This document shows positions 1 to 26,695 of a DNA stretch of 36,157 nucleotides, piece after piece (positions within the stretch are counted from its first letter, which is position 1; each line of letters opens with the position of its first letter). This DNA is from Nocardioidaceae bacterium (GTDB lineage: Bacteria > Actinomycetota > Actinomycetes > Propionibacteriales > Nocardioidaceae). The stretch is from contig DATFRX010000404.1 in NCBI GenBank assembly GCA_035262905.1, positions 1 to 36,157 on the forward strand, read 5' to 3'. The position numbers and the translations under genes are program-made. The notes beneath the pieces are model-generated. The model was not told the DNA's origin. It saw nothing but the letters and a program-made list of their open reading frames with translations, and did no database searches.

Positions 1-1
1 C

Positions 2-1963: not shown

Positions 1964-2098
1964 CAAAGACCGGGGACCCGGGTGTCGGTACCCGAGAGCC
2001 GGCATCCGGGTTCCCATCCAACCGCCTCACCCGCGCGCACCACCGCACGGCGCGCGACTCGCAGATCAGTCATCACGATTCGAAAGGACAACCCGAAC

Positions 2099-3043
2099 AT
2101 GTGTTACGGATACGACGGAAAAGCGGCGCTCAAGGAGTCGCTCGCCCGGCGGGGCGTCGACCGCCGCAAGTTCCTTCGCGGGTCGCTGGTCGGGCTCGCC
2201 GGCGCCGGTCTGGCCGCGGCTGGCGTGGCCGGGTCGCCGGCATCGGCGGCGGCCGGCATGCGTCGGGTGCCGCGCGGACAGATCAGCATTCAGCTCTGGA
2301 CCGTGCGCAACGACCTGTTCGTCGATTACGACGCGACGCTCCGCTACATCGCCGGCTTCGGCTACTCGAAGGTGGAGCAGGCGCTCGGCTACTTCGGGCG
2401 CACGGCGGCGCAGCTGCGTGAGTTCCACGACAGCATCGGTATCCGGACGATGTCGAGTCACGACGGCATCGCCGGCTCCCAGGCCGACCTCGACGCGAAG
2501 ATCGAGAACGCGCTCACCCTCGGCCAGGCGTCGATCGTGGTGCCGTTCCTCAGCTCTCCGAACGAGGACGACTGGAAGATGTGGGCCGAGCAGATGAACA
2601 ACGAGGCGGTGGCGGCGCGGGCCGCGGGCCTGAAGTACGGCTACCACAACCACGCCCACGAGTTCAGCACCGACTTCGGCAACGGCCGCCGGCCGTGGGA
2701 CGTCCTCACCGAGGACCTCGACCCGCAGAACGTCCACCTGGAGATCGACATCTACTGGATCGTGACCGGCGGGATCCAAAGCGGTGACGGTGTCGACGAC
2801 CCGGAGGGCTTCGCGATCGAGCACATGCGGGACGCGCCGCAGCGGGTGCGGCAGTTCCACGTCAAGGACCGCAACCCCGCCAACGGCGACTTCGCCGACC
2901 CCGGCACCGGCCACATCGACTTCCCCAGGGTCTTCGCGGCCAACCCGGTCCAGCAGTACATCGTCGAGAACGACGAGCCCGACGTGACGCCGCGCCAGAC
3001 CGCAGGGGTGGGCTACAGCTACCTCCGCAACGTGCGGTTCTGA
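2099..3043 (+). CDS. Tat-exported sugar phosphate isomerase/epimerase (xylose-isomerase-like TIM barrel)
   Basis: ATG at 2099 follows GAAAGGA. Twin-arginine signal: RRKFLRGSLVGLAGAGLAAAGVAGSPASAAA. TIM-barrel-like motifs: GYSKVE, YHNHAHEF, LEIDIYW, FHVKD. The listed ORF start at 1982 is rejected as a GC-driven extension. Confidence 0.8.
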   Translation: MCYGYDGKAALKESLARRGVDRRKFLRGSLVGLAGAGLAAAGVAGSPASAAAGMRRVPRGQISIQLWTVRNDLFVDYDATLRYIAGFGYSKVEQALGYFGRTAAQLREFHDSIGIRTMSSHDGIAGSQADLDAKIENALTLGQASIVVPFLSSPNEDDWKMWAEQMNNEAVAARAAGLKYGYHNHAHEFSTDFGNGRRPWDVLTEDLDPQNVHLEIDIYWIVTGGIQSGDGVDDPEGFAIEHMRDAPQRVRQFHVKDRNPANGDFADPGTGHIDFPRVFAANPVQQYIVENDEPDVTPRQTAGVGYSYLRNVRF

Positions 3044-3063
3044 CCGACAACCGACAACAACCG

Positions 3064-3093
3064 GGGCCGCCCCGTCCCCCGCCGGGGCGGCCC
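3064..3093 (+). terminator. GC-rich hairpin terminator after the 2099-3043 gene
   Basis: GGGCCGCCCCG (3064-3074) pairs perfectly with CGGGGCGGCCC (3083-3093) around an 8 nt loop, 21 nt after the stop codon. There is no U-tract, which is common in actinobacteria. Confidence 0.6.
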
Positions 3094-3167
3094 AACGGGG
3101 GAGACCCAAGGAGCATCGCCGAGATGTCCCACCGTCGACCGGTCGTCCTGTTCGGACGGAGGCCCTC

Positions 3168-4679
3168 ATGCATCTGAACAAGCGTGTGACTCTTGCGGTG
3201 TTGCTGCCGCTCGCACTGGCAGCGCCGACGGTCGCGGTCGCGGCGCCGACCGAATCGGCCCCGACGGCGACCGCGACCTCGAGCGGCTCCGATCGGCAGG
3301 CGACCCTGCTCCGGTACGCCGAGGACACCTGGGCCTCGTTCGAGGCCATGACCGACGACGACAGCGGGCTGCCGGCCGATCGGCTCCATCTCGACGGCAC
3401 CCGCAGCATCCAGACGTCGACCACCAACATCGGCTCGTACCTGTGGAGCGCGGTGGTCGCCGAGGAGCTCGGCATCATCGGCCACGACGAGCTCATCGAC
3501 CGGCTCTCCACCACGCTGAGCACGATCGAGCGGATGGACCGGCACGAGGCGAGTGGGCAGTTCTTCAACTGGTACGACTATCGCACCGGCGAGAAGCTCA
3601 CGGTCTGGCCGCCGTCCGGGGCCCCGCTCGAGCCACAGCTGTCCTCGGTCGACAACGCCTGGCTCGCCACCGGTCTGCAGGTCGTCCGCGGCGCGGTGCC
3701 GGAGCTGGCCGACCGGGCGGGCGCGCTGTACGACGGGATGGACTTCGGCTTCTACTACGTGCCGGAGCGCAACCTCATCATGCGCGCCTACATACCGAGT
3801 ACGGGCGCGACGCCGTGCTGTTACGACACGCTCGGCGAGGTGCGGATGGCGAGCTGGATCGGCATCGGCAAGGGCGAGATCCCGCGCCGGCACTACTTCG
3901 GCCCGTGGCGTACCTTCCCGCCCTCATGCGACTTCTCCTGGACGTTCACCAGGCCGGTCGGCGAGTGGCGCAAGTACCTGGGCGTCGACGTGTTCGAGGG
4001 CGCCTACACCTATCGCGGCATGAAGATCGTGCCCAACTGGGGCGGCAGCATGTTCGAGGCCCTGATGGTGCCGTTGTTCGTGCCCGAGGAGGAGTGGGGA
4101 CGGCGCAGCTGGCGGATCAATCACCCGCTGTACGTCAAAGCCCAGATCGAGCACGGTCTCAACGAGGCGCAGTACGGTTACTGGGGCTTCTCGCCGGCCG
4201 ACGTGCCCGAGGGCGGCTATCGCACGTACGGCGTCTCCTGGCTCGGCATGGACCCCGACGGCTACCCGTCCAACAACGACGGCGTCGTGCCGCGACCCGG
4301 ATACGAAGGCTGTCCGGGACGCGAGCCGCAGCCACTGCCGAAGCCGGAGGACTACACCAACGGCGTCGTGACGCCACACGCGTCGTTCCTCGCGCTGCAC
4401 TACGCACCGGACGCGGCGATGGAGAACCTGGCCAATCTCGAGAACGACTTCGACATCTACACCGACTGGGGATTCCGTGACTCGGTCAACGTCGACACCG
4501 GCGTCGTCGCCCAGTGGTACCTCGCCCTGGACCAGGGCATGATCATGGCCGCCATCGGCAACGAGCTCGCCGACGACATGCTTCGCAAGGCCTTCGTGAC
4601 GCCCCAGTTCCTCGGGCGGCTGCGGCCCCTGATGGCCATGGAGGAGTTCGCCAACTTCGAGCCGGGCCGACGGCCGTGA
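3168..4679 (+). CDS. Secreted glucoamylase-family / DUF3131-like (alpha/alpha)6-barrel glycoside-hydrolase-like protein
   Basis: GGAGG lies 6 nt upstream of the ATG. Sec-type signal: MHLNKRVTLAVLLPLALAAPTVAVAAP. Motifs TTNIGSYLWS, FFNWYDYRTGEKL, SVDNAWLA, NWGGSMFEALMVPLF and WGFRDS are recalled from putative glucoamylase / beta-1,2-glucan-active families. The stop overlaps the next start (GTGA). Confidence 0.6.
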   Translation: MHLNKRVTLAVLLPLALAAPTVAVAAPTESAPTATATSSGSDRQATLLRYAEDTWASFEAMTDDDSGLPADRLHLDGTRSIQTSTTNIGSYLWSAVVAEELGIIGHDELIDRLSTTLSTIERMDRHEASGQFFNWYDYRTGEKLTVWPPSGAPLEPQLSSVDNAWLATGLQVVRGAVPELADRAGALYDGMDFGFYYVPERNLIMRAYIPSTGATPCCYDTLGEVRMASWIGIGKGEIPRRHYFGPWRTFPPSCDFSWTFTRPVGEWRKYLGVDVFEGAYTYRGMKIVPNWGGSMFEALMVPLFVPEEEWGRRSWRINHPLYVKAQIEHGLNEAQYGYWGFSPADVPEGGYRTYGVSWLGMDPDGYPSNNDGVVPRPGYEGCPGREPQPLPKPEDYTNGVVTPHASFLALHYAPDAAMENLANLENDFDIYTDWGFRDSVNVDTGVVAQWYLALDQGMIMAAIGNELADDMLRKAFVTPQFLGRLRPLMAMEEFANFEPGRRP

Positions 4680-5872
4680 CCGGCGCCGACAAGCCCGTTG
4701 CGGGTTCGAGCGAGTCTCGAACCGGAGTCTGGTTCGTCGGCGCCCGCGGATCGGTCGCCGCCACCGCCATCGCCGGCGCGCTGGCCGTTCGGTCCCGGTT
4801 GGCCGGCCAGGTCGGGCTGGTCAGCGAGCTGGAGCCGCTGGCCGTCGCCCGGCTGCCGGAGCTCGGCAGCTTCGTGTTCGGCGGTCACGAGGTGGCCGAC
4901 CTGTCGTTGCCGAAACGGGTCGAGGAGCTGGTCGCGGCGAAGGTCGTGCCGCACGAGATCTCGGCCGCGCTGACCGCGGAGCTGGCGTCGGTGGACAACG
5001 CCATCCGGCCGGGCATCCGGCGGGACGCGCGGCCCCAGCGAGAGTCGGCGGCTGCCCTCGAAGCCGATCTGCGCGCGTTCCGCGAGGAGCACGGGCTGGA
5101 GCGGGTCGTGGTGGTCGACGTGTCGAGCACCGAGCCGCCTCCGGTCGAGGCGCCGGAGCTCGAGTCGTTGGCCGCACTCGAGCGAGCCCTGGACGCCGGG
5201 GAGTCGCCGCTGCCGCCGAGCTCGCTCTATGCGTACGCGGCGTTCCGGGCCGGCTGTCCGGTAGTCGCGTTCACGCCGAGTCCCGGGCCGCGGCTGCCCG
5301 CGCTGGAGGAGCTGGCCGCCTCGGCCGGACTGCCGTGGGCGGGTTCGGACGGCAAGACCGGCGAGACGCTGGTCAAGACGGTGCTGGCACCGATGTTCGC
5401 GATGCGCGCGTTGCGGGTCCGTTCGTGGTCGTCGTACAACCTGCTCGGCGGTGGCGACGGTCGTACGCTGGCCGACCCGGCGAACGCCGCGAGCAAGACG
5501 GTGACCAAGGGCCAGAGTCTGGAGGCGATCCTCGGCCACCCGGTGGACGGGCCGCTGCACATCGACTACGTGGCCGATCTGGGCGACTGGAAGACCGCGT
5601 GGGACATGATCTCGTTCGAGGGCTTCCTCGGCACCCAGATGTCGTTGCAGTTCACCTGGACTGGCTGCGACTCGGCGCTGGCCGCTCCACTCGTGCTGGA
5701 CCTGGTCCGGCTGGTGGCGCGGGCGCATCAGGTCGGCGAGACCGGCCCGCTCGGGCCGCTGGGGTTCTTCTTCAAGAACCCGGCCGGCAGCGAGGTGCAT
5801 GCCCTCAGTGAGCAGTGGGCTGCGCTGCTGGACTGGTGTCAGCGACTGGGCGAGGCGGGCGACCGGACATGA
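4676..5872 (+). CDS. myo-inositol-1-phosphate (inositol-3-phosphate) synthase family protein, cluster-specific copy
   Basis: GTG at 4676 overlaps the upstream TGA. Rossmann-like N-terminus: VWFVGARGSVAATAIAG. Family motifs: SDGKTGETLVKTVLAPMF, SYNLLGGGDG, CDSALAAPLVLDLVRL. The listed start at 4514 is rejected because it overlaps the upstream gene. Confidence 0.8.
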   Translation: MTGADKPVAGSSESRTGVWFVGARGSVAATAIAGALAVRSRLAGQVGLVSELEPLAVARLPELGSFVFGGHEVADLSLPKRVEELVAAKVVPHEISAALTAELASVDNAIRPGIRRDARPQRESAAALEADLRAFREEHGLERVVVVDVSSTEPPPVEAPELESLAALERALDAGESPLPPSSLYAYAAFRAGCPVVAFTPSPGPRLPALEELAASAGLPWAGSDGKTGETLVKTVLAPMFAMRALRVRSWSSYNLLGGGDGRTLADPANAASKTVTKGQSLEAILGHPVDGPLHIDYVADLGDWKTAWDMISFEGFLGTQMSLQFTWTGCDSALAAPLVLDLVRLVARAHQVGETGPLGPLGFFFKNPAGSEVHALSEQWAALLDWCQRLGEAGDRT

Positions 5873-6753
5873 AGACCCGGGACCTGGTCGAGCTGGTCCG
5901 CCTGCCGGCGGCCTTGACCGTGCCCGGGGACTCACTGGCCGGTGCCGCTGCGGCGGGCTGGCCGTACGGGCGGCGCAGCTGGGCGCTGCCGGTGGCCTCT
6001 GCCTGCCTGTACTGGGCCGGGATGGCGCTCAACGACTACGCCGACCGGGACCTGGACCGTGTCGAGCGGCCGGAGCGGCCCATCCCGTCCGGCCGGGTCA
6101 GTCCGACCGAGGCGCTGGGAGTGGCCGCCGGGCTGACCGCGGCGGGCCTGCTGGTCGCCGGTCTCGTCGGCGGTCGACGAGGCCTGGGCGGCGCCGTCCG
6201 CGTGGCGGGAACGGCCTGGGCCTACGACCTGCTGGCCAAGCCCACCCCGGCCGGACCGGCGTGCATGGCGGCCGCCCGCGGTCTCGACGTACTGCTCGGC
6301 GCCGGAAGCCGTTGGCGCGAAGCCGCGCCCACCAGCGCCGCCGTCGCCGCCCACACGCTCGGAGTGACCGTGCTGAGCCGGGGCGAGGTGAACGGTGCGC
6401 GGCCGTCCGATGCCTACGCCGCGCTGATCGCGACGGCGACGGCAGCCTCGGCTGCTGCGCTCCCTGCTCGGCGACCGGACCGGCCGGCCCCGTCCTGGGG
6501 CGGCCGGGTAGCTCGATGGTCCGGCGCCGGCCTGGCTGCGGTGTACGCGACGGCGGTGGGCCGCAGTCAGCTGCGTGCGGCCGAGAAGCTGGACGCGGGC
6601 ACGGTGCGCAGCGCGACCGGGTCCGGGATCCGGGGCGTCATCCTGCTGCAGTCGGCGCTGGCCGCCCGATCCGGCTCGCCGGGTGTGGCCGGCGGTCTGC
6701 TGCTCGCCGGACCGGCGGCGCGGCTGGCATCCAAGGTGGTGTCGCCGACATGA
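5869..6753 (+). CDS. eboC: UbiA-family integral-membrane prenyltransferase (EboC-like / SCO3242-type)
   Basis: ATGA overlap with the upstream stop. First UbiA motif: ALNDYADRDLDRVERPERPIPSGRVS. The sequence is hydrophobic, Ala/Gly/Leu-rich and multi-span. It sits inside the ebo-type gene set. Confidence 0.75.
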   Translation: MKTRDLVELVRLPAALTVPGDSLAGAAAAGWPYGRRSWALPVASACLYWAGMALNDYADRDLDRVERPERPIPSGRVSPTEALGVAAGLTAAGLLVAGLVGGRRGLGGAVRVAGTAWAYDLLAKPTPAGPACMAAARGLDVLLGAGSRWREAAPTSAAVAAHTLGVTVLSRGEVNGARPSDAYAALIATATAASAAALPARRPDRPAPSWGGRVARWSGAGLAAVYATAVGRSQLRAAEKLDAGTVRSATGSGIRGVILLQSALAARSGSPGVAGGLLLAGPAARLASKVVSPT

Positions 6754-7616
6754 GCCTGCGCTTCGGCTACGGGACGAACGGCTTCGGCAGCCACCGCCTG
6801 GACGACGCCCTGGAGGTGATCGCCGGGCTCGGCTACGACGGCGTCGCGCTGACCGTCGATCAGCCGCACCTCGACCCGTTCGCGCCCGATCTGGCGGCCC
6901 GAACCGCCGCGGTCAGTCAGCGACTCGATCGGCTCGGTCTGGCCGTCGTGGTGGAGACCGGAGCGCGCTACGTCATGGACCCGTGGCACAAGCACGAGCC
7001 GACGCTGGTGTCGACCGACGGTTGGGAGCGGCGAGTGGACCTGCTGTGCCGAGCGGTACGCATCGCCTCCGATCTGGGGGCGGAGGCGGTGTCGTTCTGG
7101 TCCGGGATCCTGGACGAGGGCATCGGCGCCGACGACGGCTGGCAACGGCTGCTCGCCGGGGTGGAGACGGTGCTCGGCGAGGCGGAGCGGCACGACGTGG
7201 TGTGCGCGTTCGAACCCGAGCCGGGCATGTTCGTCGACACTGTCGCCGGGGTGCTGGAGCTGCGCCGTCGGCTCGGCTCGCCGGAGCGGCTGCGGGTGAC
7301 CCTGGACATCGGTCATTGCGTCTGCAACGAGCCGGGCACGGTCGCCGACTGCGTCCACCAGGCCGGTGCCCTGCTCGCCAACGTGCAGCTCGACGACATG
7401 GTCCCCGGCGTACACGAGCATCTCGAGTTCGGCGCCGGCGAAGTCGACCTGCCGAACGCGCTGGGTGCGCTGCTCGACGTCGGCTACTCGGGTCTGGCGG
7501 CCGTCGAGCTGCCACGACACGGACATGCCGCGCCAGTCGTCGCCGCCCGGTCTCTGGACACGCTGCGTACGGCACTCGCCCGGGCCCGGGGCGAGCGGGA
7601 AGCCGTCCGTACCTGA
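6750..7616 (+). CDS. Sugar phosphate isomerase/epimerase (xylose-isomerase-like TIM barrel), cytoplasmic
   Basis: ATGA overlap at 6750. Motifs: MSLRFGYGTNGF, GYDGVAL, FEPEPGMF, LDIGHC, HEHLEFGAGEVD. No signal peptide. Confidence 0.75.
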   Translation: MSLRFGYGTNGFGSHRLDDALEVIAGLGYDGVALTVDQPHLDPFAPDLAARTAAVSQRLDRLGLAVVVETGARYVMDPWHKHEPTLVSTDGWERRVDLLCRAVRIASDLGAEAVSFWSGILDEGIGADDGWQRLLAGVETVLGEAERHDVVCAFEPEPGMFVDTVAGVLELRRRLGSPERLRVTLDIGHCVCNEPGTVADCVHQAGALLANVQLDDMVPGVHEHLEFGAGEVDLPNALGALLDVGYSGLAAVELPRHGHAAPVVAARSLDTLRTALARARGEREAVRT

Positions 7617-7651
7617 GGACATCGATCGCCAGCCGAGGAGGCGCAGCGGAC

Positions 7652-8356
7652 ATGAGTACAACGTCGGATCACCTCACGCCGCACCTGGATGCCGACGCCC
7701 GACGCCGTCTGGAGGCGCTCGTACACGAGCTCGACGACGAGCCGGAGCGGATCTCGGTGCTGTTCCCGGCTGTGGGTCGGCGGGTGGCGCGCGGACCGTC
7801 CGACGCCGACGACCCGGACGGCGTCCGGCACCCACGACTCGAGGACGAGGCCCGGGTGGCGCTGCTGGCGACGCTGGCCGACGCCTGGCGGGACCGGCCG
7901 GAGCGGTTCGACCGTGAGATCGCCGAGCTCTACCGCTACGGCGACGCCGACGAGAAGCGCGGCGTGCTGCGGGCCCTGTCGGCGATCGACCCCGAGCCAG
8001 GCCCGGCCTCCCTGCCGCTGGTCGACGACGCACTGCGAACCAACGACGTGCGTCTGGTCGCCGCGGCGCTCGGGGCGTACGGAGCGCGACACCTCAGCGT
8101 CGAGGCCTGGCGCCAGGGCGTACTGAAGTGCCTGTTCGTGGGAGTCCCGCTCGATGCCGTCGCTCGCCTCGACGAGCGGGCCGACGCCGAGCTGGCTCGC
8201 ATGGTGGCCGACTACTGCCGCGAGCGCACCGCCGCCGGGCGATCGGTCCCGGCGGACGCGAGCCGGGTGCTCGAGCGGGTTCCTTGGAGCGCTGCGGATC
8301 GGCCGGAAGACGGCGGCAATCGGAGGACGGAGACCGAAGGACTGGAGGCCACCTGA
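7652..8356 (+). CDS. eboA: EboA-domain protein (function unknown)
   Basis: ATG at 7652 follows GAGGAGG. There is no recognisable catalytic motif. It is Ala/Arg/Asp-rich and predicted helical (VLFPAVGRRVARGP...). Its position directly upstream of the TatD-like gene matches ebo clusters. The assignment rests on context plus recalled family features. Confidence 0.55.
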   Translation: MSTTSDHLTPHLDADARRRLEALVHELDDEPERISVLFPAVGRRVARGPSDADDPDGVRHPRLEDEARVALLATLADAWRDRPERFDREIAELYRYGDADEKRGVLRALSAIDPEPGPASLPLVDDALRTNDVRLVAAALGAYGARHLSVEAWRQGVLKCLFVGVPLDAVARLDERADAELARMVADYCRERTAAGRSVPADASRVLERVPWSAADRPEDGGNRRTETEGLEAT

Positions 8357-9225
8357 TGCGCATCTTCGACCCGCACATCCACATGACGTCCCGCACCACC
8401 AACGACTACGAGGCGATGTACGCCGCCGGAGTCCGGGCGCTCGTCGAGCCGGCGTTCTGGCTGGGCCAGCCGCGCACCAGCATCGGCTCGTTCTGCGACT
8501 ACTTCGACGGTCTGGTCGGCTGGGAGCGGTTCCGGGCTGCCCAGTTCGGCATCCGGCACCACTGCACGATCGCGCTGAATCCGAAGGAGGCGAACGACCC
8601 GCAGTGCGCGGCGGTGCTCGACGTACTGCCGCGCTACCTGGCCAAGGACGGCGTCGTCGCGGTCGGGGAGGTCGGGTTCGACTCGATGACGGCCGAGGAG
8701 GAGAAGGCATTCGCGCATCAGCTCGAGTTGGCAGGCGAGCACGACCTGCCGGTGCTGGTGCACACGCCGCACCGGGACAAGGCCGCGGGAACCCGCCGGA
8801 CGCTGGAGCTGGTCGCGAGCTCCGGGTTGCCGCCGGAGCGGGTGCTGGTGGACCACCTCAACGAGCTGACCGTGCAGATGGTGGCCGAGTCCGGCTGCTG
8901 GATGGGGTTCTCGATCTATCCCGACACCAAGATGGACGAGCAGCGGATGGTCGGGATCCTGGCCGCGTACGGGCTGGACCGGATGATCGTCAACTCGGCG
9001 GCCGACTGGGGTCGCAGCGATCCGCTCAAGACGGCGAAGACCGGCTGGGCGATGCTCGACAACGGCTTCACCGACGACGACGTCGATCGCGTGCTGTGGC
9101 GAAACCCGGTGGAGTTCTACGCGCAGAGCGGACGGCTCCTGCTCGACGAGATCGAGGCCGAGCCCACGGCGACCTTCCAGGGCAACTCGGTGCTGCGCGG
9201 GCAGCGCCCGACCGAACAGGAGTGA
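8356..9225 (+). CDS. eboB: TatD-family metal-dependent hydrolase (EboB-like)
   Basis: TGATG overlap at 8356. Motifs: MRIFDPHIHM (metal-binding HxH), VAVGEVGFD, PVLVHTPH, MIVNSAADWG. Confidence 0.75.
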   Translation: MRIFDPHIHMTSRTTNDYEAMYAAGVRALVEPAFWLGQPRTSIGSFCDYFDGLVGWERFRAAQFGIRHHCTIALNPKEANDPQCAAVLDVLPRYLAKDGVVAVGEVGFDSMTAEEEKAFAHQLELAGEHDLPVLVHTPHRDKAAGTRRTLELVASSGLPPERVLVDHLNELTVQMVAESGCWMGFSIYPDTKMDEQRMVGILAAYGLDRMIVNSAADWGRSDPLKTAKTGWAMLDNGFTDDDVDRVLWRNPVEFYAQSGRLLLDEIEAEPTATFQGNSVLRGQRPTEQE

Positions 9226-9228
9226 GCC

Positions 9229-10395
9229 ATGCGGTTCCGGCACCCGGACGGCACGCTCGTCCATCTCGCGTACTGCACCAACGTCCACCCCACCGAGGAC
9301 TTCGAGGCGCTGCTCGACCAAGTGCGCCGCTACGGCGGTGGGGTGCGGGCCCGGCTCGGCGTCGACCGGCTGGGACTCGGTCTGTGGCTGCCGGCACCGG
9401 TTGCCGCGCATCTGGCCGACCACCCGGACGTCGAGCGGCTACGGGAAGCACTCGCGGACAGCGGACTCGAGGTGGTCACGCTCAACGCCTTCCCGTACGC
9501 CGGGTTCCACGATCCTGAGGTGAAGAAGGCCGTCTACCGGCCGGACTGGTGTGACTCGGCCCGGCTGGAGTACACGCTCAACTGCGCGGCTGTCCTGGCC
9601 AAGCTGCTGCCCGACGACGCGGCCCGCGGCAGCATCTCCACACTGCCGCTCGGCTGGCGCAGCCCGTGGTACGCCGACCGGCAGCATCAGGCCGAGGAGC
9701 ACCTGGCCAGGCTGGTGGAGGGCCTGGAGAAGCTGCAGGCCGAGACCGGCTGGGCGATCCGGGTCGGTCTCGAGCCGGAGCCCGGGTGTGCCGTGGAGAC
9801 CACCACCGATGCGGTGGAGCGGCTGGCCCAGGTGGACACCGACTGGATCGGCGTCTGTCTGGACACCTGCCATCTGGCGGTGGAGTTCGAGGACTCGGCG
9901 GCCGCCGTCGAGCGGTTGGCCTCGGCCGGCCTGCCCGTCGTGAAGGCGCAGGCGTCAGCGGCGCTGCAGGCGGCGACACCGGGCGAGGCAGCCACCCGGG
10001 AGGCGCTGGCCGACTACTCCGAGGACCGGTTCCTGCACCAGACCCGCGAGCACGCGGGCGGACGGACCATGGGCCGCGACGACCTGCCTGACGCGCTGGA
10101 CGGCCGGCGGGCGCTGCGTGGCCGCGGCCCCTGGCGGGTGCACTTCCACGTGCCGCTGCACGAACGGCCGGTTGAGCCGCTGGACGGCACCCATGACCAC
10201 CTGACGCAGACGCTGGCGGCCCTGCTTGGCGGGCCGACGGCGGTGACCGACCACATCGAGGTGGAGACGTACACCTGGTCGGTGCTGCCGGAGGCCCGGC
10301 GGCCGGACGGTCCGGACGGGCTGGTCGACGGCATCGCGGCCGAGCTGGGCTGGGCCCGCGACCGACTCGTCGAGCTCGGATTGGAGACGCTGTGA
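9229..10395 (+). CDS. eboE: EboE-like xylose-isomerase-fold TIM-barrel protein (metabolite traffic protein EboE family)
   Basis: ATG lies 3 nt after the upstream stop. The N-terminal LAYCTNVHPTEDFEAL and LEPEPGCAVE, CLDTCHLAVEFED, VHFHVPLH fit the about 390 aa EboE type. It is flanked by TatD-like and AP-family genes. Confidence 0.65.
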   Translation: MRFRHPDGTLVHLAYCTNVHPTEDFEALLDQVRRYGGGVRARLGVDRLGLGLWLPAPVAAHLADHPDVERLREALADSGLEVVTLNAFPYAGFHDPEVKKAVYRPDWCDSARLEYTLNCAAVLAKLLPDDAARGSISTLPLGWRSPWYADRQHQAEEHLARLVEGLEKLQAETGWAIRVGLEPEPGCAVETTTDAVERLAQVDTDWIGVCLDTCHLAVEFEDSAAAVERLASAGLPVVKAQASAALQAATPGEAATREALADYSEDRFLHQTREHAGGRTMGRDDLPDALDGRRALRGRGPWRVHFHVPLHERPVEPLDGTHDHLTQTLAALLGGPTAVTDHIEVETYTWSVLPEARRPDGPDGLVDGIAAELGWARDRLVELGLETL

Positions 10396-11783
10396 ACAAG
10401 CTGCTCGTCATCGACGTCGTGGGGCTCACCCCGCGGCTGCTGACCCACATGCCCCGGTTGAGTGCGCTGTCCGGCGACGGGTTCGACGCCGAGCTCGGCA
10501 CCGTGCTGCCAGCGGTCACATGCCCGGCCCAGTCGACCTTCCTGACCGGACTGACGCCGCAAGAGCACGGGATCGTCGGGAACGGCTGGTTCTTCCGCGA
10601 CCTGGGCGAGGTGTTGTTCTGGCGGCAGCACAACCGGCTCGTCGAGGGCGAGAAGGTCTGGGAGACCGCCCGCCGGACCTGGCCGGACTACCGGGTCGCC
10701 AACGTGTGCTGGTGGTACGCGATGGGATCCAGCACCGACACCACCATCACGCCGCGACCGGTCTACCACGCCGACGGACGCAAGTCGCCGGACTGCTGGA
10801 CCTGGCCGCCGTCGCTGCACGGCCGGCTGACCGGCCAGCTCGGCGCGTTCCCGCTGTTCAACTACTGGGGGCCGACGGCGTCGATCCAGAGCTCGAAATG
10901 GATCGTCGGAGCCACCCGGATGCTGCTGCCGGAGCACGATCTCACCCTGGCCTACATCCCGCATCTCGACTACGACCTGCAGCGCTATGGGCCGAAAAGT
11001 CAACAGGCCGTACAGGCCGCCCGTGACGTGGACGCCGCGCTGGCGCCGCTGCTGGACGACGCTCGCGACCAGGACGTCACGGTGGTGGTGCTCAGTGAGT
11101 ACGGCATCACCGATGTACGCCGTCCGGTGGACGTCAACCGGGCGCTGCGTCGAAACGGCCTGCTCCACGTACACACCAATGCCAGCGGCGAGCTGCTCGA
11201 CCCTTGGACGTCACGCGCGTTCGCCGTGGCCGACCATCAGCTGGCCCATGTGTACGTGCGGGATCCCGCCGACCTGGACCAGGTGCGGGAGCTGGTCGGT
11301 GCGCTGCCCGGCGTCGCAGAGGTGCTCGACGCGGACGGCAAGGCCGCGCATGGCCTCGACCACCCGCGGGCCGGCGAACTGGTCCTGGTGGCCGAGCCGG
11401 ACGCCTGGTTCACCTACTACTACTGGCTCGACGACGACCGCGCGCCGGACTTCGCCCGTGCGGTGGAGATCCACAAGAAGCCGGGCTACGACCCGGCCGA
11501 GCTGTTCCTCGACCCCGAGGACCGCTGGGTGAAGCTGCGGGCCGGAGCCGGGCTGGCCCGCAAGAAGCTCGGCTTCCGGTATGCGATGAACGTGGTCCCG
11601 CTGGACCCCGCGCCCGTGCGCGGCAGCCACGGCCGGCTGCCCGCCGACCCGGCGGACGGACCGATGCTGCTGTGCTCCGACCCGAGTGCCGCCCGGGAGC
11701 GGTTCGAGGCGACCGAGGTCCGCAACCTGCTGCTCCAGCTGGCCGGCGCACGGGTGGAAGCCGAGCGGCCGGTACCGGGATGA
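10392..11783 (+). CDS. eboF: Alkaline-phosphatase-superfamily nucleotide pyrophosphatase/phosphodiesterase (EboF-like)
   Basis: GTGA overlap at 10392. N-terminal LLVIDVVGLTPRLL and catalytic-Thr region LPAVTCPAQSTFLTGLTPQEHGIVGNGWF. Also YIPHLDY and SHGRLP. Confidence 0.75.
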   Translation: MNKLLVIDVVGLTPRLLTHMPRLSALSGDGFDAELGTVLPAVTCPAQSTFLTGLTPQEHGIVGNGWFFRDLGEVLFWRQHNRLVEGEKVWETARRTWPDYRVANVCWWYAMGSSTDTTITPRPVYHADGRKSPDCWTWPPSLHGRLTGQLGAFPLFNYWGPTASIQSSKWIVGATRMLLPEHDLTLAYIPHLDYDLQRYGPKSQQAVQAARDVDAALAPLLDDARDQDVTVVVLSEYGITDVRRPVDVNRALRRNGLLHVHTNASGELLDPWTSRAFAVADHQLAHVYVRDPADLDQVRELVGALPGVAEVLDADGKAAHGLDHPRAGELVLVAEPDAWFTYYYWLDDDRAPDFARAVEIHKKPGYDPAELFLDPEDRWVKLRAGAGLARKKLGFRYAMNVVPLDPAPVRGSHGRLPADPADGPMLLCSDPSAARERFEATEVRNLLLQLAGARVEAERPVPG

Positions 11784-12841
11784 CCAGAGCGGCGGCCGAG
11801 CCGGGGATCGCCAGGGACCCGGGCGACGGTCCGATCGTGGCCGGCCTCGCGGGGCGGCTGCTCGCGGAGACGCGCGAGCAGATCGAGCCCGCACTCCGGT
11901 CGGCAATCGACGGTCTGCCGCCCAGGGTGCGGTTGGCGGCCGGCTATCACGCCGGGCTGTGGGACGCCGAGGGCCGGCCCGCCGGCCACCCGGGCAAGGC
12001 GCTGCGGCCGGCGCTGGTGATGAGCTGCGGGCGCGCTGCCGCCGGTGACGACGTCGGAGCCTCGGAACGGCTGATCGCCGCGGCAGTGGCGGTCGAGCTC
12101 ATGCACGACTTCACGCTGCTGCACGACGACGTGATGGACGGTGACGCGGTACGCCGGCATCGGCCCGCGACCTGGGACGTGTTCGGCGTGGCGTACGCCG
12201 TCCTCACCGGCGACACCCTGCTGGCGCTGGCGCTGAACCAGCTGTCCCGGCTCGGTGCCGGCATCGAGACGCTGGCGGCCACGCTGCTCGAACTGTGCGT
12301 CGGCCAGGGCACCGATCTGGAGGTCCAGGGCCGATCCGACGACGCCGACCTGGATCGATGCCTGGCGCTGGCGGAGGCGAAGACCGGCGCTCTGCTGGGA
12401 TGTGCCTGTCAGCTGGGCGCGATGGTGGTGCGCCCGGGGGAGTGCGAGACGGCGCCGTACCGGGAGTTCGGCCGCCATCTCGGAGTGGCGTTCCAGCTCA
12501 CCGACGACCTGCTGGGCATCTGGGGCGACCCGGAGCTGACCGGCAAGCCGGTGCACGCCGACCTGGCAGCGCGAAAGCTGACCCTGCCGGTCACCGCGGC
12601 GTTGACCTCCGGGACCAGTGCGGGGGAGCGGCTGCGGGTGCTGTACGCCGACAGCAGGTCGAACGGAACCGCTCGGATGGCCGAGCTCGTCGAGCGGGCC
12701 GGTGGCCGGGCCTGGGCGCAGGCCGAGGCCGACCGGCGGGCCGGCCTGGCGCTGGAGGCACTGGAGGAGGCCGGGCCGGAGCCGGCCGCCGCGGCCGAGC
12801 TGCGGGCGCTGGTCGAGCTCGCACGTCGGCGGGACCTCTGA
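11780..12841 (+). CDS. Polyprenyl diphosphate synthase (trans-isoprenyl, short/medium chain; GGPP/FPP-synthase-like)
   Basis: ATGA overlap at 11780. First Asp-rich motif LLHDDVMDGDAVRRHRP, second Asp-rich motif FQLTDDLLGIWGD, and KPVHADLAARKLTLP. Confidence 0.85.
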   Translation: MTRAAAEPGIARDPGDGPIVAGLAGRLLAETREQIEPALRSAIDGLPPRVRLAAGYHAGLWDAEGRPAGHPGKALRPALVMSCGRAAAGDDVGASERLIAAAVAVELMHDFTLLHDDVMDGDAVRRHRPATWDVFGVAYAVLTGDTLLALALNQLSRLGAGIETLAATLLELCVGQGTDLEVQGRSDDADLDRCLALAEAKTGALLGCACQLGAMVVRPGECETAPYREFGRHLGVAFQLTDDLLGIWGDPELTGKPVHADLAARKLTLPVTAALTSGTSAGERLRVLYADSRSNGTARMAELVERAGGRAWAQAEADRRAGLALEALEEAGPEPAAAAELRALVELARRRDL

Positions 12842-12870
12842 CCCGAGGCTGATGGGGGGAGCAACCAGAG

Positions 12871-12937
12871 CTTTTAGAAATAAGTTACGAAAGTTCATCG
12901 TGAAATATTGAAAGTTTCAGTATTCACGCCGTAACTT
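12871..12937 (+). promoter_or_regulatory. AT-rich promoter/operator region, copy A
   Basis: Candidate -35 TTGAAA (12908-12913), an 18 nt spacer, then -10 TAACTT (12932-12937). The palindrome TGAAA-G-TTTCA (12909-12919) overlaps the -35. Upstream TTTTAGAAA / TTACGAAAGT boxes align with palindromes in copy B. This is a sharp AT-rich island in 70% GC DNA. Confidence 0.45.
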
Positions 12938-13106
12938 AAGGAAACCGCGAAACCACCGGAAGTGCTAGCGATGACATTATTTAGCTACTTTTCGGCAGAA
13001 CCAGGTCCGTCACAGCGGCATGACTCTCGGGTGGTCACCGCGATGCCGGCTCCTTTGGGATCCGCCCCTGCGCCTCGGGACGCAGCCCTTCTTGAGGAGG
13101 AGTCCG

Positions 13107-13181
13107 ATCCGGGCATCCCGGCCCGGTCGCTCACCGCAACCCTCACCCCGGCGGGCGCTTAGTGCTCGCTTCGGTCGCAGC
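13107..13181 (+). pseudogene. Decayed 5-prime remnant of a Tat-signal TIM-barrel gene (start codon position now ATC)
   Basis: AGGAGGAG-N4-ATC at 13095-13109 aligns with AGGAGGAG-N4-ATG of the 17607 gene. The translated remnant IRASRPGRSPQPSPRRALSARFGRS resembles MRASKSNPVRRALSRRRFLGTT. No barrel-coding sequence follows. Confidence 0.45.
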
Positions 13182-13212
13182 CGATTGCCCTCGTACGGCG
13201 GCCGAAGCGAGC
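13164..13212 (+). other. 15 bp stem hairpin in the 5-prime leader of the 13263 gene
   Basis: GCTCGCTTCGGTCGC (13164-13178) pairs with GCGGCCGAAGCGAGC (13198-13212), with one G-U pair and a 19 nt loop. It lies 50 nt upstream of the start codon and has no U-tract. Confidence 0.5.
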
Positions 13213-13262
13213 GGGGAACTCCCGCCATACCGCAACGACTCAGCGGTCGAGAAAGGAATCCC

Positions 13263-16200
13263 ATGTTCGAACGTACCAAGCCGCGTCCCCGAGGACGCGC
13301 GCCCTCGAGACCACGGCGCCAGGCGCTGGCCCTGGCGGCCGGCGCCGTGCTGGCGCTCGGCCTGACCACCATCCCGGCCCAGGGACAAGCACAGTCCCAA
13401 CCGGCCGCGGTGGCCGACGACGCCAGCGCGGTGAACGTGCTGGTCTTCCACGGCCCGGCCGAGGAGCAGGACGACCCGGTGCTGGACGCCGCAGCGGCGA
13501 TCGAGCAACTGGGCAGCAGCGGCGGATTCGACGTCGACGTCTCGACCGACCCGTCGGTGTTCAGCGCCGAGGGTCTGCGGCCGTACCGCGGTGTGGTGTT
13601 CCTGTCCGCCGTCGGAGCGGAGCTGAGCAACGACCAGGAGCGGGAGCTCGAGGACTACATCGAGGCCGGTGGCGGCTTCCTGGGCATCCACGACGCCGCC
13701 AGGGCGCAGGAGCGCTCGCAGTGGTTCGGTGGCCTGATCGGCGCGCGTCCGGTCGGCGCGCTGCCCGAGCCGGAGCCGGTCGTGTCGAGTGCGACCACCG
13801 CGAGTGGCGACAACCCGCCGAACGAGACCAGGTTCCAGCTGGTCGACGGCGACATCGGCACCAAGTGGCTGACCTTCAATCCCACCGGCTGGGTGGCCGT
13901 CCGGCTCCAGGAGGCGGCCGCGATCAACCAGTACGCGCTGACGTCGGCCAACGACTCCCCCGAGCGCGACCCGCGCAACTGGGCGCTGCAGGGGTCCAAC
14001 GACGGCTCGACCTGGACCGACCTGGACACCCGGAGCGGGGAGAGCTTCCCGAACCGGTTCCAGACCAAGGACTACTCGTTCGAGAACACCACGTCGTACG
14101 AGTGGTACCGGATCGACATCAGGGCGAACGCCGGCGGCCCGCTCACCCAGCTGGCCGAGCTCGAGCTCTTCGCCGGTGACGCGACGCCACCTGAGGACCC
14201 GCCGGTGCAGGAGGCGACGGTCAACTTCGTCGACCGGCAGCACCCGGCCAACGACGGGCTGCCGCTCACCGAGACCCGAGACGACCAGTGGCTGAACTGG
14301 GACACCAACCCGGTCGGCCAGGTCCACACCGTCGCGCAGGTGGACGAGTCGACCTACGACCCGGGTCGGGGCGCCAACGGTCCGTTCCATCCGATCTCGT
14401 GGTGCCGCGACTACGACGGCGGCCGGTCGTTCTACACCGGCATGGGAGCCACCGCCGACGGCTACGGCGACGGCGACTTCCAGGACCACTTGATGGGTGC
14501 CATCCAGTGGACGACCGGCATGGTCCGCGGCGACTGCCAGGCGACCATCGCGTCGAACTACCGGATCGAGCGACTCGTCACCCAGGGTCCGGCGCCGTTC
14601 GATCTCAACGACATCGGCGAGATCCACGGCCTGGACGTCGCGGCTGACGGCTCGGTGTTCTACATCGGCAAGTCGGCCTGCCCGTCCGGCCCGATCGCTT
14701 CGTGGGACAACCCGAACGTCGGCCTCGGCTGCGGCACCGTGCACCGGTGGGACCCCGACACCAAGCAGCCCAAGCTACTCGCGACGCTGCCGGCGTTCGG
14801 TAACCGCGGCAGTGGCGACGAGTCGGTCAAGGCCGAGGACGGCCTGGTCGGCATCGCGCTCGACCCGAAGTTCCTGCAGAACGGCTGGATCTACCTGTAC
14901 TGGATGCCGCAGGCGTCGGTCGACCGCACCCGGCACACCGGCGAGCGGACGATCTCGCGGTTCACCTACGACAAGCAGACCAACACGATCGACATGAACA
15001 GCCGGGTCGACCTGCTCAAGTGGGAGATCCAGGTGCACTTCTGCTGCCATGCCGGTGGCGGGATGGACTTCGACTCCGACGGCAACCTCTACATCGGTGT
15101 CGGCGACTCCAACTCGTCCGGCGGCTCCAACGGTTACTCGGGCAACAACTGGACCCAGGAGTTCGGTGGCTACTCCTACCAGGACGCCCGCCGTACGGCA
15201 GGCAACACCAACGACCTGGACGGCAAGATCCTGCGGATCCACCCCGAGCCCGACGGCACGTACACGATCCCGGACGGCAACCTGTTCCCCGAGTCGGAGG
15301 ACCCGGGCAACAAGACCCGGCCGGAGATCTATGTGATGGGCGTACGCAACATCTCGACGCTCTTCGTCGACCCGACGACCGACCTGCTCCACGCGGCCTG
15401 GGTCGGCCCGGACGCCGGCAGCCCGAGCCCGGAGCTGGGGCCGGCGAAGTACGAGACCGCCACCATCATCACGTCGGCCGGCAACCAGGGATGGCCCTAC
15501 TGCATGGGCAACGGCCAGCCGTACCGCGACCGGAGCAACGAGGACGCGAGCATCCTCACCGGCTGGTACGACTGCGACAATCTGCAGAACAACTCGCCAC
15601 GCAACACCGGCCTGGTGAACCTGCCGCCGGCGCGGGACAACATGATCTGGTACTCGCCGCAGGGTGGCGGACCGGTGTTCCCGGAGCGGTCCGACGGCAG
15701 TGGGATCCCGACGTACAACAACACGGAAACCACGTTCACCGAGCCGTACCTGCGGGGCGGCTGCCAGGCAATCATGACCGGCCCGGTCTATCACCAGTCG
15801 CTGATCACGCAGAAGAACAGTGACGTCGCGTGGCCGTCGTACTGGGAGGACAAGTGGTTCCTCGGTGACGAGTGCAACCCGAACAACCGGGTCGCGCTCA
15901 CCGTCGATCCCGACGGGATCGAGGACGCGCAGCCCCCGGTGTTCGCCGAGAGCCTGCGCGAGATCATCCCCGGCGGCGCTGCCAACCTGCAGAGCTGGAT
16001 GATGACCTCACGGTTCGGTCCGGACGGCGCCCTCTACATGGGCGACTACGGGGGCGGCTTCTTCAGCCTCAACCAGAACCAGAAGCTGATTCGGGTCGTC
16101 TACGACGGTGGTCCGCCGACTCCGGGTCCCACCGCGTCGTCGGTCGCCGTCAACAACACGCCGATGACGATCGCGTTCAGCGGCGAGAAGTCCGGCGGCG

Positions 16201-17270: not shown

Positions 17271-17309
17271 CCGGTCGGCGCGAACCGAGTCCCGGTTCGC
17301 GCCGACCGG
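17271..17309 (+). terminator. Strong hairpin terminator after the 13263-17261 gene
   Basis: CCGGTCGGCGCGAACCG (17271-17287) pairs perfectly with CGGTTCGCGCCGACCGG (17293-17309). This gives a 17 bp stem and a 5 nt loop, starting 10 nt after the TAG. Confidence 0.75.
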
Positions 17310-17375
17310 CGTTAGCGGTTGGCGGTCGTACTGTGCGACCGACCGGATGTGCGACCGAGCGGAGCCGGTCACTCC

Positions 17376-17442
17376 GTTTCGAAAATTACTTTCGAAAGTT
17401 CGTTCATGACTATTGCTACTAACTGTAATTAGCCCGTAACTT
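17376..17442 (+). promoter_or_regulatory. AT-rich promoter/operator region, copy B
   Basis: Candidate -35 TTGCTA (17413-17418), an 18 nt spacer, then -10 TAACTT (17437-17442). Perfect palindromes TTTCGAAA (17377-17384) and ACTTTCGAAAGT (17388-17399) lie about one helical turn apart upstream of the -35. Confidence 0.45.
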
Positions 17443-17606
17443 TAGGGGTCAGCACCACCGGAGGGGCTGGCTATGGCGATAGTTTCGTTACCTCTCGGAA
17501 AAACCTTCGTCCGCAAGGCGTGCCTACTCGGGCTCAGCGCGACGCCGGCTCTTCTCGCGTCCGCCCCCTGCGCCATTCGGCGCGGCCAGCTTCTAGGAGG
17601 AGCACG

Positions 17607-25563: not shown

Positions 25564-26621
25564 GTGAGAAGACGACAGACGCGACGACCGACGCGACGCC
25601 GCCGGGCGAGCAGCAACGGGTCGAGGTCGTAGAGAAGGACACCACCGGATCTCGCGTGGCCAGCATCATGGCGTCGCCGGCCGGCCGCAACCTGGGCCTG
25701 GTCGTCGCGTTCGCCCTGTTGTGTGTGGTCGGGATCATCACGGCCGGCGATCTGTTCGCCGACGTCGACAACGTCGTCACGATCCTGCGGTTGGCCGCGG
25801 TCCTCGGCATCGTCAGCATCGGCATGACCTTCGTCATCATCGGCGGCGGCATCGATCTGTCGGTGGGTTCGATCGTCGCGCTCTCCACGGTCTGGGCGAC
25901 GACGGTGGCGACCCAGCAGATGGCCGCCGACTTCCACTGGATCGTCATCGTCTTCACGGCCATGGCCGTCGGAGCCGGTTGTGGACTGGTCAATGGTGTG
26001 CTCATCGCGTACGGACGGATCGCACCGTTCATCGCCACGCTGGCGATGTTCGCGGCCGCCCGTGGGCTCGCCGAGGTCATCTCGGACAAGCGCAACCAGC
26101 TCGTCGACGACCCGGGGTACGTCGACTTCTTCTCCCGTGAGCTGATCGGCGTGCCGGTGTTGGTCTACGTCTTCGCGCTGGTGGCCGCGATCGGCTGGGT
26201 GCTGCTCAACCGCACGACGTTCGGCCGGCGGACGATCGCGGTCGGCGGCAACGAGGAAGCCGCCCGGCTGGCCGGCATCAAGGTGCAACGGCACACCGTC
26301 TACCTCTACGTCCTGGTCGGTGTCGCGAGTGGAATCGCGGCCGCCATGCTCCTCGCGCGAACCGGAACGGGCACGGCTCAGCACGGCGTGCTGCTCGAGC
26401 TCGACTCGATCGCCGCGGTCGTCATCGGCGGCACGCTGCTGACCGGGGGCCGCGGCACGATCGTCGGGACCGTCCTCGGTGTCCTGATCTTCACCACGCT
26501 CACCAACATCTTCACCCTCAACAACATCGACACGTCCAACCAGAACGTCGCCAAGGGCGTGATTATCGTCGCCGCGGTGCTGCTGCAGCAGGCCGTGGCC
26601 AAACGCGCCGGCAGTACGTAG
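25560..26621 (+). CDS. CUT2-type sugar ABC transporter permease (RbsC/XylH-like)
   Basis: GTGA overlap. Multi-span hydrophobic protein with GGIDLSVGS, FGRRTIAVGGNEEAARLAGI and GGTLLTGGRGT motifs. The start could instead be the internal MASPAG. Confidence 0.85.
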   Translation: MSEKTTDATTDATPPGEQQRVEVVEKDTTGSRVASIMASPAGRNLGLVVAFALLCVVGIITAGDLFADVDNVVTILRLAAVLGIVSIGMTFVIIGGGIDLSVGSIVALSTVWATTVATQQMAADFHWIVIVFTAMAVGAGCGLVNGVLIAYGRIAPFIATLAMFAAARGLAEVISDKRNQLVDDPGYVDFFSRELIGVPVLVYVFALVAAIGWVLLNRTTFGRRTIAVGGNEEAARLAGIKVQRHTVYLYVLVGVASGIAAAMLLARTGTGTAQHGVLLELDSIAAVVIGGTLLTGGRGTIVGTVLGVLIFTTLTNIFTLNNIDTSNQNVAKGVIIVAAVLLQQAVAKRAGST

Positions 26622-26695
26622 CCGTCCGCATGTCCCCAAGCCCCCCGCTGTATGAGCTGGACCTGCCGGTCCGTCACTTCATCAAGGAGTAACCG

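Follow-up and report, generated by a model that had tools for sequence, protein, structure and literature searches.

A soil actinobacterial ebo/ino operon that probably encodes a thallusin-class prenylated hydroxyquinoline pathway

What do nine closely packed plus-strand genes at 3168-12841 of contig DATFRX010000404.1 encode, and what compound would they make? The contig was analyzed over its full 36,157 nt (~70% GC) and is called the window below. The genes resemble ebo, a long-standing orphan cluster that is found in thousands of bacterial genomes and some algal plastids and has now been tied to thallusin-type cross-kingdom signals. The locus is almost certainly an operon of the Actinomycetota-type ebo/ino kind, and its product is probably a prenylated hydroxyquinoline carboxylate meroterpenoid of the saccharoquinoline/thallusin class.

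Domain scans with Pfam and NCBIfam covered 26 open reading frames (ORFs) across the window and agreed with the domains that an initial annotation, made from the sequence, had assigned to the gene set. Curated models identified EboE, the EboA domain and a SCO3242-family prenyltransferase, and Pfam models identified the other genes, with EboB and EboF assigned at family level (TatD_DNase and Phosphodiest, respectively). The EboA and EboE models that had been proposed as a check of the ebo assignment, NF035938 and NF035939, both scored well above their cutoffs (Table 1). The assignment held for an ebo-type operon but not for canonical ebo, as the search for EboD returned a DHQ_synthase-type domain in 0 of the 26 ORFs, the prenyltransferase (gene 3) reached 115.6 bits against the EboC equivalog NF035940 (prenyl_rel_EboC, cutoff 250), and gene 5 reached 66.5 bits against the full EboA-family model NF035937 (cutoff 320). 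Canonical eboABCDEF of Bacteroidota, Cyanobacteria and eustigmatophyte plastids (Yurchenko 2016, Klicki 2018) shares with this locus EboE, the EboA domain, a TatD-like EboB, a UbiA-type prenyltransferase and a Phosphodiest-type EboF in one operon, whereas here a myo-inositol-1-phosphate synthase (MIPS) is found instead of EboD, the prenyltransferase is of the SCO3242 family, an extra TIM barrel is present and the gene order is different. The EDB cluster, known for nematode repellence in Pseudomonas fluorescens NZI7 and compared by description, also combines an ebo-derived set with lineage-specific genes, but it retains eboD, carries three other unknown genes, and its phenotype involves indole-derived compounds.

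The departures from canonical ebo coincide with the type described for Actinomycetota, which lacks eboD and contains ino1 (inositol-3-phosphate synthase) and the isomerase/dehydratase genes ino2 and ino3 (10.64898/2026.05.21.724671). The cluster of Saccharomonospora sp. CNQ-490 (Kallscheuer et al., bioRxiv 2026) shares with the window the absence of eboD and an ino1 directly before an EboC-type prenyltransferase; this strain produces both thallusin and saccharoquinoline. For gene-by-gene comparison, Saccharomonospora sp. CUA-673 (locus L010) was used as a congeneric stand-in for the CNQ-490 reference locus. It has the same gene order, with the prenyltransferase followed by TIM barrel, EboA, EboB, EboE and EboF, and its core proteins share 59-85% identity with their counterparts in the window. 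The L010 prenyltransferase at 6717-7594 is split into two overlapping pieces in different frames, an apparent frameshift that is either an assembly error or a pseudogene. Compared with the CNQ-490 type, only the locus studied here has a polyprenyl synthase after eboF and a beta-1,2-glucanase-like gene before ino1. Saccharomonospora carries a HAD hydrolase after eboF.

To place the locus among its relatives, species-representative genomes were scanned with a pattern, which gave at least 600 stretches and at least 596 confirmed EboE relatives. The best 80 of these at least 596 loci, nearly all with actinobacterial names, formed the comparison set; 62 of them had full flanks, and synteny was mapped by tblastn. 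The neighbourhood comparison across Actinomycetota that had been suggested at the outset yielded a seven-gene core, MIPS-prenyltransferase-TIM barrel-EboA-TatD-EboE-phosphodiesterase, whose order is kept nearly everywhere in the 80 loci. Among the full-flank loci, EboE and the TatD-like protein were present in 62/62, the TIM barrel in 61/62, the phosphodiesterase in 60/62, the prenyltransferase in 58/62, EboA in 57/62 and MIPS in 49/62, and MIPS, where present, directly precedes the prenyltransferase. EboB is 56-85% identical across loci. Proteins identical to those of the window were found on soil metagenome and metagenome-assembled genome contigs only, and the closest cultured relatives are Phytoactinopolyspora spp. 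(Jiangellales), with 80% identity in EboE.

The same 80-locus synteny bore out the proposal that the prenyl-diphosphate synthase and the glycoside-hydrolase-like gene are lineage-specific additions. An orthologue of gene 9 lies directly after eboF, with 54-57% identity, only in the Phytoactinopolyspora loci L006 and L007. In L054 and L076 this place is taken by unrelated prenyl synthases (31-32% identity). Prenyl synthases were recruited next to eboF independently in three lineages. Homologues of gene 1 were found near the ebo core in 0/80 related loci, even at E 1e-3, and the gene was found on same-species metagenome contigs only, a distribution that marks it as a predicted species-specific insertion or passenger and not a conserved ebo member. 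The boundaries first drawn, 3168 and 12841, consequently do not delimit the conserved system, as gene 1 is not a conserved member of it and conserved partners lie outside. Gene 1 encodes a protein with a Sec-type signal peptide (N-terminus read by eye), and its PDB matches are the middle domain of cyclic beta-1,2-glucan synthase (1.2e-29) and GH144 endo-beta-1,2-glucanase (2e-8).

All nine ORFs are intact, with GC content at third codon positions of 0.86-0.94, and every junction described in the initial annotation was found. Four-base overlaps join genes 1 and 2 (GTGA, 4676/4679), 2 and 3 (ATGA, 5869/5872), 3 and 4 (ATGA, 6750/6753), 7 and 8 (GTGA, 10392/10395) and 8 and 9 (ATGA, 11780/11783). 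Genes 5 and 6 share 1 nt at 8356 (TGATG), and gaps of 35 nt (7617-7651) and 3 nt (9226-9228) precede genes 5 and 7, respectively. Phytoactinopolyspora homologues of gene 2 align from residue 1 of the protein that begins at GTG 4676, which supports this start and hence the overlap with gene 1. Judging from the overlaps, the nine genes are probably a single transcription unit, and the overlaps are compatible with translational coupling.

The product of ebo and its enzymology had been described as undefined, a statement that is now outdated. In a preprint that links ebo to thallusin and saccharoquinoline and includes an actinobacterial producer, 27/27 thallusin producers among 35 strains had ebo genes and 8/8 non-producers lacked them, thallusin was lost on single deletion of eboB, eboC, eboE or eboF in Stieleria maiorica, L-aspartate was incorporated into the quinoline part of thallusin, and EboC of Maribacter, Stieleria and Saccharomonospora sp. 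CNQ-490 farnesylated an ester of 6,7,8-trihydroxyquinaldic acid (10.64898/2026.05.21.724671). Independently, UbiA-297/EboC was reported to farnesylate 8-hydroxyquinaldic acid (PMC9235831). Thallusin and saccharoquinoline are drimane-quinoline meroterpenoids; saccharoquinoline is known from Saccharomonospora and one Streptomyces strain, and streptoquinolines from another Streptomyces. In the proposed route, a cyclitol is condensed with aspartate and aromatized to trihydroxyquinaldic acid, which is then farnesylated (10.64898/2026.05.21.724671).

Mapped onto the window, the route would have five steps. First, the MIPS of gene 2 would cyclize glucose-6-phosphate to myo-inositol phosphate, as its homology and conserved catalytic residues suggest. 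Second, TIM-barrel isomerases/dehydratases would convert this to a deoxy-inosose-type intermediate; context and folds point to gene 4, probably an upstream TIM barrel (uTIM), and also a distal TIM barrel (dTIMb) and a distal GFO/IDH/MocA (GFO) dehydrogenase as candidates. Third, EboB, EboE, EboF and EboA would jointly condense the intermediate with L-aspartate and dehydrate/aromatize it to trihydroxyquinaldic acid. Fourth, gene 9 would supply farnesyl diphosphate (FPP) or geranylgeranyl diphosphate (GGPP). Fifth, gene 3 would attach the prenyl chain and possibly cyclize it, by analogy with its Saccharomonospora orthologue, which farnesylates in vitro.

For the first step, the top PDB match of gene 2 is Archaeoglobus fulgidus MIPS 1u1i (1.3e-71), compared with merely 1e-6 for Mycobacterium tuberculosis Ino1, and the protein is below the cutoff of the mycothiol INO1 equivalog (34 vs 638). 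In the alignment with 1u1i, D225, N255, L257, D261, K274, K278, K306, D332 and K367 are all identical; we take these residues to be the catalytic set of the A. fulgidus enzyme. Gene 2 is probably an active cyclase acting on glucose-6-phosphate, and we infer that it stands in for EboD as the cyclitol-forming enzyme; EboD itself is described in a February 2026 review as a DHQS-like DEI synthase using mannose-6-phosphate. The closest solved relatives of genes 2 and 6 are both from A. fulgidus, not actinobacterial or enterobacterial, which hints at a shared non-housekeeping ancestry. For gene 6 (EboB), the top PDB match is AF_1765 (1.7e-27); the protein has an N-terminal DPHIH motif and is far under the cutoffs of the nuclease TatD models.

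For the second and third steps, gene 4, which is confined to the actinobacterial form of the cluster, is a candidate isomerase, epimerase or dehydratase of sugars or cyclitols. TIM barrel-EboA fusions are known in Actinobacteria (PMC5133447) and link EboA to a TIM barrel of the gene 4 type. The AlphaFold2 (AF2) model of EboE (pLDDT 90.6) is a xylose-isomerase-like TIM barrel whose nearest folds, at E ~2e-7, are AsbF 3-dehydroshikimate dehydratase, UlaE, IolI and IolE; PDB relatives of EboE were not detectable by sequence. This predicted fold fits dehydration, isomerization or aromatization of a cyclitol ring. The xylose-isomerase-like fold is common to IolI, IolE and AsbF and to the EboE model and TIM barrels of the cluster, yet the context here is biosynthetic, in contrast to the catabolic iol operon, and every score is far under its equivalog cutoff (for example, GFO against IolG, 113 vs 355; dTIMb against IolE, 38 vs 290). 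The AF2 model of gene 5 (pLDDT 92.7) is a small all-alpha HEAT-like solenoid for which a fold search of the PDB returned no significant neighbour (best E 0.12, generic HEAT/ARM solenoids). On this evidence, EboA would more likely be a scaffold or binding protein than an enzyme. Gene 8 (EboF) matches nucleotide pyrophosphatases/phosphodiesterases in the PDB at 1.5e-8.

For prenylation, the SCO3242 family is a sister of EboC, with gene 3 the actinobacterial EboC counterpart. Conservation across 59 homologues is at least 95% for its N55-D56-x-x-D59-x-x-x-D63 motif, Y48 and R137. Tyr-56 and Arg-145 have been described as signature residues of EboC/UbiA-297, to which, from a constant offset of 8, Y48 and R137 plausibly correspond. 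The Pfam UbiA match is limited to the N-terminal half of gene 3. A canonical second Asp-rich motif (DxxxD) was not recognizable in gene 3 and 58 homologues; H162-T163 and S170-R171-x-E173 (SRxE) are conserved in that region. The synthase of gene 9 has the first aspartate-rich motif FTLLH-DDVMD, with F at -5 and no insertion, and the second motif DDLLG, both also present in the closest solved synthase, 3nf2 of Streptomyces coelicolor, for whose product a literature search gave nothing. Its chain-length region resembles that of the archaeal-type GGPP synthase 1wy0 of Pyrococcus horikoshii, and the protein reaches no equivalog cutoff (best 384 vs 450; IdsB 281 vs 475).

Several points weigh against this assignment of product. 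The product link comes mainly from one preprint, in which the deletions were made in a planctomycete (10.64898/2026.05.21.724671), so that a requirement for ebo genes has been shown only in S. maiorica, in a phylum other than the present one, and the February 2026 review still lists the ebo product as unknown. The product class was read from genes alone in an uncultured organism, and EboA, EboB, EboE and EboF were placed in the route only as a group. Gene 3 misses the EboC cutoff and lacks a recognizable second Asp-rich motif, and the GGPP-synthase-like chain-length region of gene 9 leaves room for a C20 instead of a C15 prenyl chain. Finally, neither a sigma-70 scan nor a motif scan found a promoter upstream of gene 1.

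The same pathway logic could also lead to another lineage-specific end product, which we consider rather unlikely. GGPP from gene 9 would give a C20 (labdane-type) quinoline, or other tailoring would apply, with the secreted GSDH-PKD, ThuA-type and beta-1,2-glucanase-like proteins maturing the compound or acting with it extracellularly. The GGPP-synthase-type region of gene 9 accords with this, but the chain-length rule is a rule of thumb, 3nf2 comes without a product assignment here, and every assay so far used FPP. The scaffold does vary, as the streptoquinolines show, and tailoring genes differ by lineage (P450, FAD oxidase, HAD, metallo-beta-lactamase). Some Streptomyces ebo-type loci (L020 and L023) lack an adjacent MIPS and carry a cytochrome P450 after eboF, an FAD amine oxidase, an inositol monophosphatase and a metallo-beta-lactamase-fold protein, gene swaps that point to chemical diversification of the product. 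GSDH, ThuA, GFO and ATP-binding cassette (ABC) genes are conserved neighbours of the core; these accessory genes could equally belong to an unrelated sugar-catabolism neighbourhood, as a xylose isomerase and a ROK regulator are present.

Less probable still is the product that had first been proposed, a prenylated, phosphorylated cyclitol lipid or carrier, in which the UbiA enzyme would O-prenylate inositol phosphate to form a membrane carrier for "metabolite traffic". MIPS, a UbiA prenyltransferase, a phosphodiesterase and a prenyl synthase do occur together in the cluster, the next prenyltransferase matches after the EboC-type models are archaeal transferases of the geranylgeranylglyceryl phosphate/digeranylgeranylglyceryl phosphate (GGGP/DGGGP) type, genes 2 and 6 have their closest solved relatives in Archaeoglobus, the NCBI family name is "metabolite traffic protein", and a scytonemin precursor builds up in the cytoplasm of a Nostoc ebo mutant (PMC6282210). 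However, Nostoc itself makes thallusin and the scytonemin phenotype is considered indirect by the preprint authors, and a cyclitol lipid conflicts with condensation of cyclitol and aspartate and aromatization before farnesylation (10.64898/2026.05.21.724671). The hydroxyquinoline substrates of EboC homologues, the actinobacterial one included, the thallusin genetics and the aspartate labelling together disfavour a cyclitol-phosphate lipid.

Least of all is it credible that genes 6 and 4 are YtkR4/YtkR5-type apurinic/apyrimidinic endonucleases/exonucleases conferring self-resistance to a DNA-damaging product made elsewhere in the genome: the yatakemycin proteins YtkR4/YtkR5 are likewise a TatD-family and a xylose-isomerase-like TIM-barrel protein that co-occur, their homologues stand with Phosphodiest, UbiA and MIPS genes in Streptomyces "ebo-like" clusters for which such a role was proposed (10.1101/2024.09.16.613364), and the HEAT-like DNA glycosylases AlkC and AlkD2 are among the non-significant fold matches of EboA, but EboB is just ~24% identical to YtkR4 (a literature figure, 10.1101/2024.09.16.613364), deletion of eboB abolishes thallusin (10.64898/2026.05.21.724671), gene 6 does not approach the nuclease models, the AlkC/AlkD matches (E 0.8-1.5, TM ~0.3) reflect a likeness common to solenoids, the conserved linkage to MIPS and prenyltransferase suits biosynthesis, and the window is without a glycosylase or genotoxin cluster. 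A parallel between gene 5 and AlkC/AlkD-type glycosylases, and with it the yatakemycin YtkR2/4/5 trio, was rejected because the matches were non-significant.

The locus belongs to a kind of system that is already known, with curated NCBIfam models and a functional framework that covers the actinobacterial variant, and it extends that variant to an uncultured soil lineage of Jiangellales. The comparison separates a strict seven-gene core from lineage-limited add-ons, and the compact cluster with its own prenyl-diphosphate synthase is a convenient candidate for heterologous expression. The locus alone opens no new question, and the conserved GSDH-PKD, ThuA-type, GFO and ABC importer neighbours may offer leads to the cyclitol-conversion and oxidative steps still missing from the route.

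Table 1. Features of the ebo/ino locus and of its neighbours in the window, with the match or observation on which each assignment is based
Feature	Position	Strand	Basis
Secreted GSDH-PKD protein, 3' part (pyrroloquinoline quinone (PQQ)-type glucose/sorbosone dehydrogenase-like beta-propeller and PKD), candidate accessory	1-1963	+	Pfam GSDH 93.4 bits, PKD
uTIM, xylose-isomerase-like TIM barrel, candidate ino-type accessory	2099-3043	+	AP_endonuc_2 49 bits; alternative start 1982
Hairpin	3064-3093	+	Perfect 11-bp all-G/C stem, 8-nt loop
Gene 1, secreted (alpha/alpha)6 glycoside-hydrolase-like protein	3168-4679	+	Pfam Glycoamylase 58.6 bits, DUF3131 31.1 bits
Gene 2, archaeal-type myo-inositol-1-phosphate synthase (MIPS, "Ino1")	4676-5872	+	Pfam NAD_binding_5 149.3 bits, Inos-1-P_synth 110.4 bits
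Gene 3, membrane UbiA-superfamily prenyltransferase, SCO3242 family	5869-6753	+	NF045897 361.8 bits, cutoff 260
Gene 4, xylose-isomerase-like TIM barrel	6750-7616	+	Pfam AP_endonuc_2 120.6 bits
Gene 5, EboA-domain protein	7652-8356	+	NF035938 160.3 bits, cutoff 50
Gene 6, EboB, TatD-like metal-dependent hydrolase, amidohydrolase fold	8356-9225	+	Pfam TatD_DNase 53.7 bits, cutoff 27
Gene 7, EboE	9229-10395	+	NF035939 (TIM_EboE equivalog) 431.7 bits, cutoff 250, full-length alignment
Gene 8, EboF, nucleotide pyrophosphatase/phosphodiesterase, alkaline-phosphatase superfamily	10392-11783	+	Pfam Phosphodiest 216.5 bits, cutoff 23
Gene 9, short-chain trans-isoprenyl diphosphate synthase (putative FPP/GGPP donor)	11780-12841	+	Pfam polyprenyl_synt 180.1 bits
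AT-rich intergenic region	12842-13019	.	47% GC vs ~70% in the window; marks the 3' boundary of the operon
CUT2 ABC sugar importer	24058-27736	+	Homologues, 49-69% identity, upstream of GFO in five loci
GFO/IDH/MocA dehydrogenase, levoglucosan dehydrogenase/IolG-like, candidate distal partner	27842-29050	+	IolG model 113 bits, cutoff 355
dTIMb, TIM barrel, candidate distal partner	30273-31280	+	AP_endonuc_2 149.7 bits; IolE model 38 bits

The conserved partners lie on both sides of the nine genes. The GSDH-PKD gene is complete on a same-species contig (L086), where it encodes 711 aa with a Sec signal peptide (read by eye); homologues with 41-63% identity were found upstream of the ebo core in 16/62 full loci, and those of Pseudonocardiales are contiguous with MIPS. 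The 314-aa gene call of uTIM was also taken from L086, and in 9 loci the core is adjoined by a homologue with 49-62% identity, which precedes the core in Pseudonocardiales and follows eboF in Nocardioides and Jiangella. Homologues of the GFO dehydrogenase (63-74% identity) lie just upstream of the core in 12 loci, and those of dTIMb (62-86% identity), whose start has an AAGGAG ribosome-binding site, adjoin it in 23/62 full loci. Gene 4, uTIM and dTIMb are candidates for ino2/ino3, as their orthologues flank the core elsewhere. Compared with Saccharomonospora, the GSDH-PKD/uTIM order in the window is swapped and the pair is split from the core by the hairpin, and GFO and dTIMb are 15-17 kb away instead of contiguous.

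Among the loci scanned, those of Nocardioides (L012) and Streptomyces (L082) have a ThuA or ThuA-3-keto-disaccharide-hydrolase gene immediately in front of MIPS, and two giant proteins of the window (13020-17261 and 19001-22549) combine ThuA/GSDH/3-keto-disaccharide-hydrolase domains. In L012 the arrangement is fully contiguous: ABC, permease, substrate-binding protein, GFO, ThuA, MIPS, prenyltransferase, TIM barrel, EboA, TatD, EboE, phosphodiesterase, TIMb and uTIM. Recurring neighbours of these kinds were seen in loci L008-L016, L030, L048, L053, L054, L062-L064, L076 and L080-L085. In its layout the window resembles a conserved super-locus that has been rearranged, an association of which no mention was found in the literature consulted, and these neighbours may either feed or mature the ebo product or form a linked sugar-catabolism neighbourhood.

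In a more far-reaching version, to which we give little credence, the ebo core would be one module of a larger super-locus comprising the CUT2 importer, GFO, the extra TIM barrels and secreted ThuA/GSDH-PKD/3-keto-disaccharide-hydrolase-like proteins. The module would be fed by imported or oxidized cyclitols or sugars, the PQQ-type dehydrogenase-like proteins would carry out extracellular oxidation (saccharoquinoline to thallusin) or other maturation, and the GGPP-type synthase could give a C20 analogue.

Three further genes of this region were noted. A 461-aa ORF at 17520-18905 had no Pfam or NCBIfam match. In Streptomyces-type loci, the gene immediately following eboF shares 27-41% identity with it, and the only one of these following genes that was scanned (L056) matched a Pfam xylose-isomerase-like TIM barrel. 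An Arthrobacter-type xylose isomerase (29063-30244, TIGR02631 634.6 bits) lies between GFO and dTIMb. An ATP-grasp protein with a PGM1_C domain (31359-32927) has a weak likeness to BesA ligase (152 bits vs cutoff 750).

The hairpin and the AT-rich region that had been reported on either side of the operon are both present. The hairpin starts 21 nt past the stop codon of uTIM. Perfect hairpins of at least 10 bp numbered three in the window, no commoner than in shuffled sequence, and all three are placed 10-21 nt past plus-strand stop codons, a placement that argues for a terminator-like or 3'-end function. The other two, 17271-17309 (17-bp stem) and 27749-27780 (12-bp stem), are ~10-13 nt past the stops at 17261 and 27736 and look like terminators lacking a T-tract. 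The hairpin before gene 1 is a candidate for a terminator-like element of the upstream unit or for a 5' boundary/attenuator of the ebo operon. The fold energy of 3044-3167 was not better than that of shuffles (z = -1.0), and an Rfam scan of the whole window returned neither a riboswitch nor any other RNA element. Between the hairpin and the ATG of gene 1 lie 74 nt with zero TA dinucleotides and no TAnnnT/-10-like hexamer, and the sigma-70 scan, which covered 1-14000, gave no match; the operon may therefore be transcribed by read-through from the preceding unit.

The AT-rich region is a predicted promoter/operator leader of the next gene and lies outside the ebo operon. Three paralogous AT-rich leader/operator regions of ~130 nt were found, at 12860-13019 and 17360-17519 of the window and at 4209-4340 of L086. 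A fuzzy search for their motif in 80 related loci gave one chance-like match, with no Rfam match, and the motif appears to be species-specific. The leaders precede the giant gene at 13020, the gene at 17520 and the GSDH-PKD gene, respectively. They share the blocks CGAAAGTTC, TATTG, CGTAACTT, CCACCGGAGGGGCT and TCGGCAAAACC, and the two window copies have 80% column identity. The likeness of the copies suggests that they share one regulator, and ROK genes adjoin.

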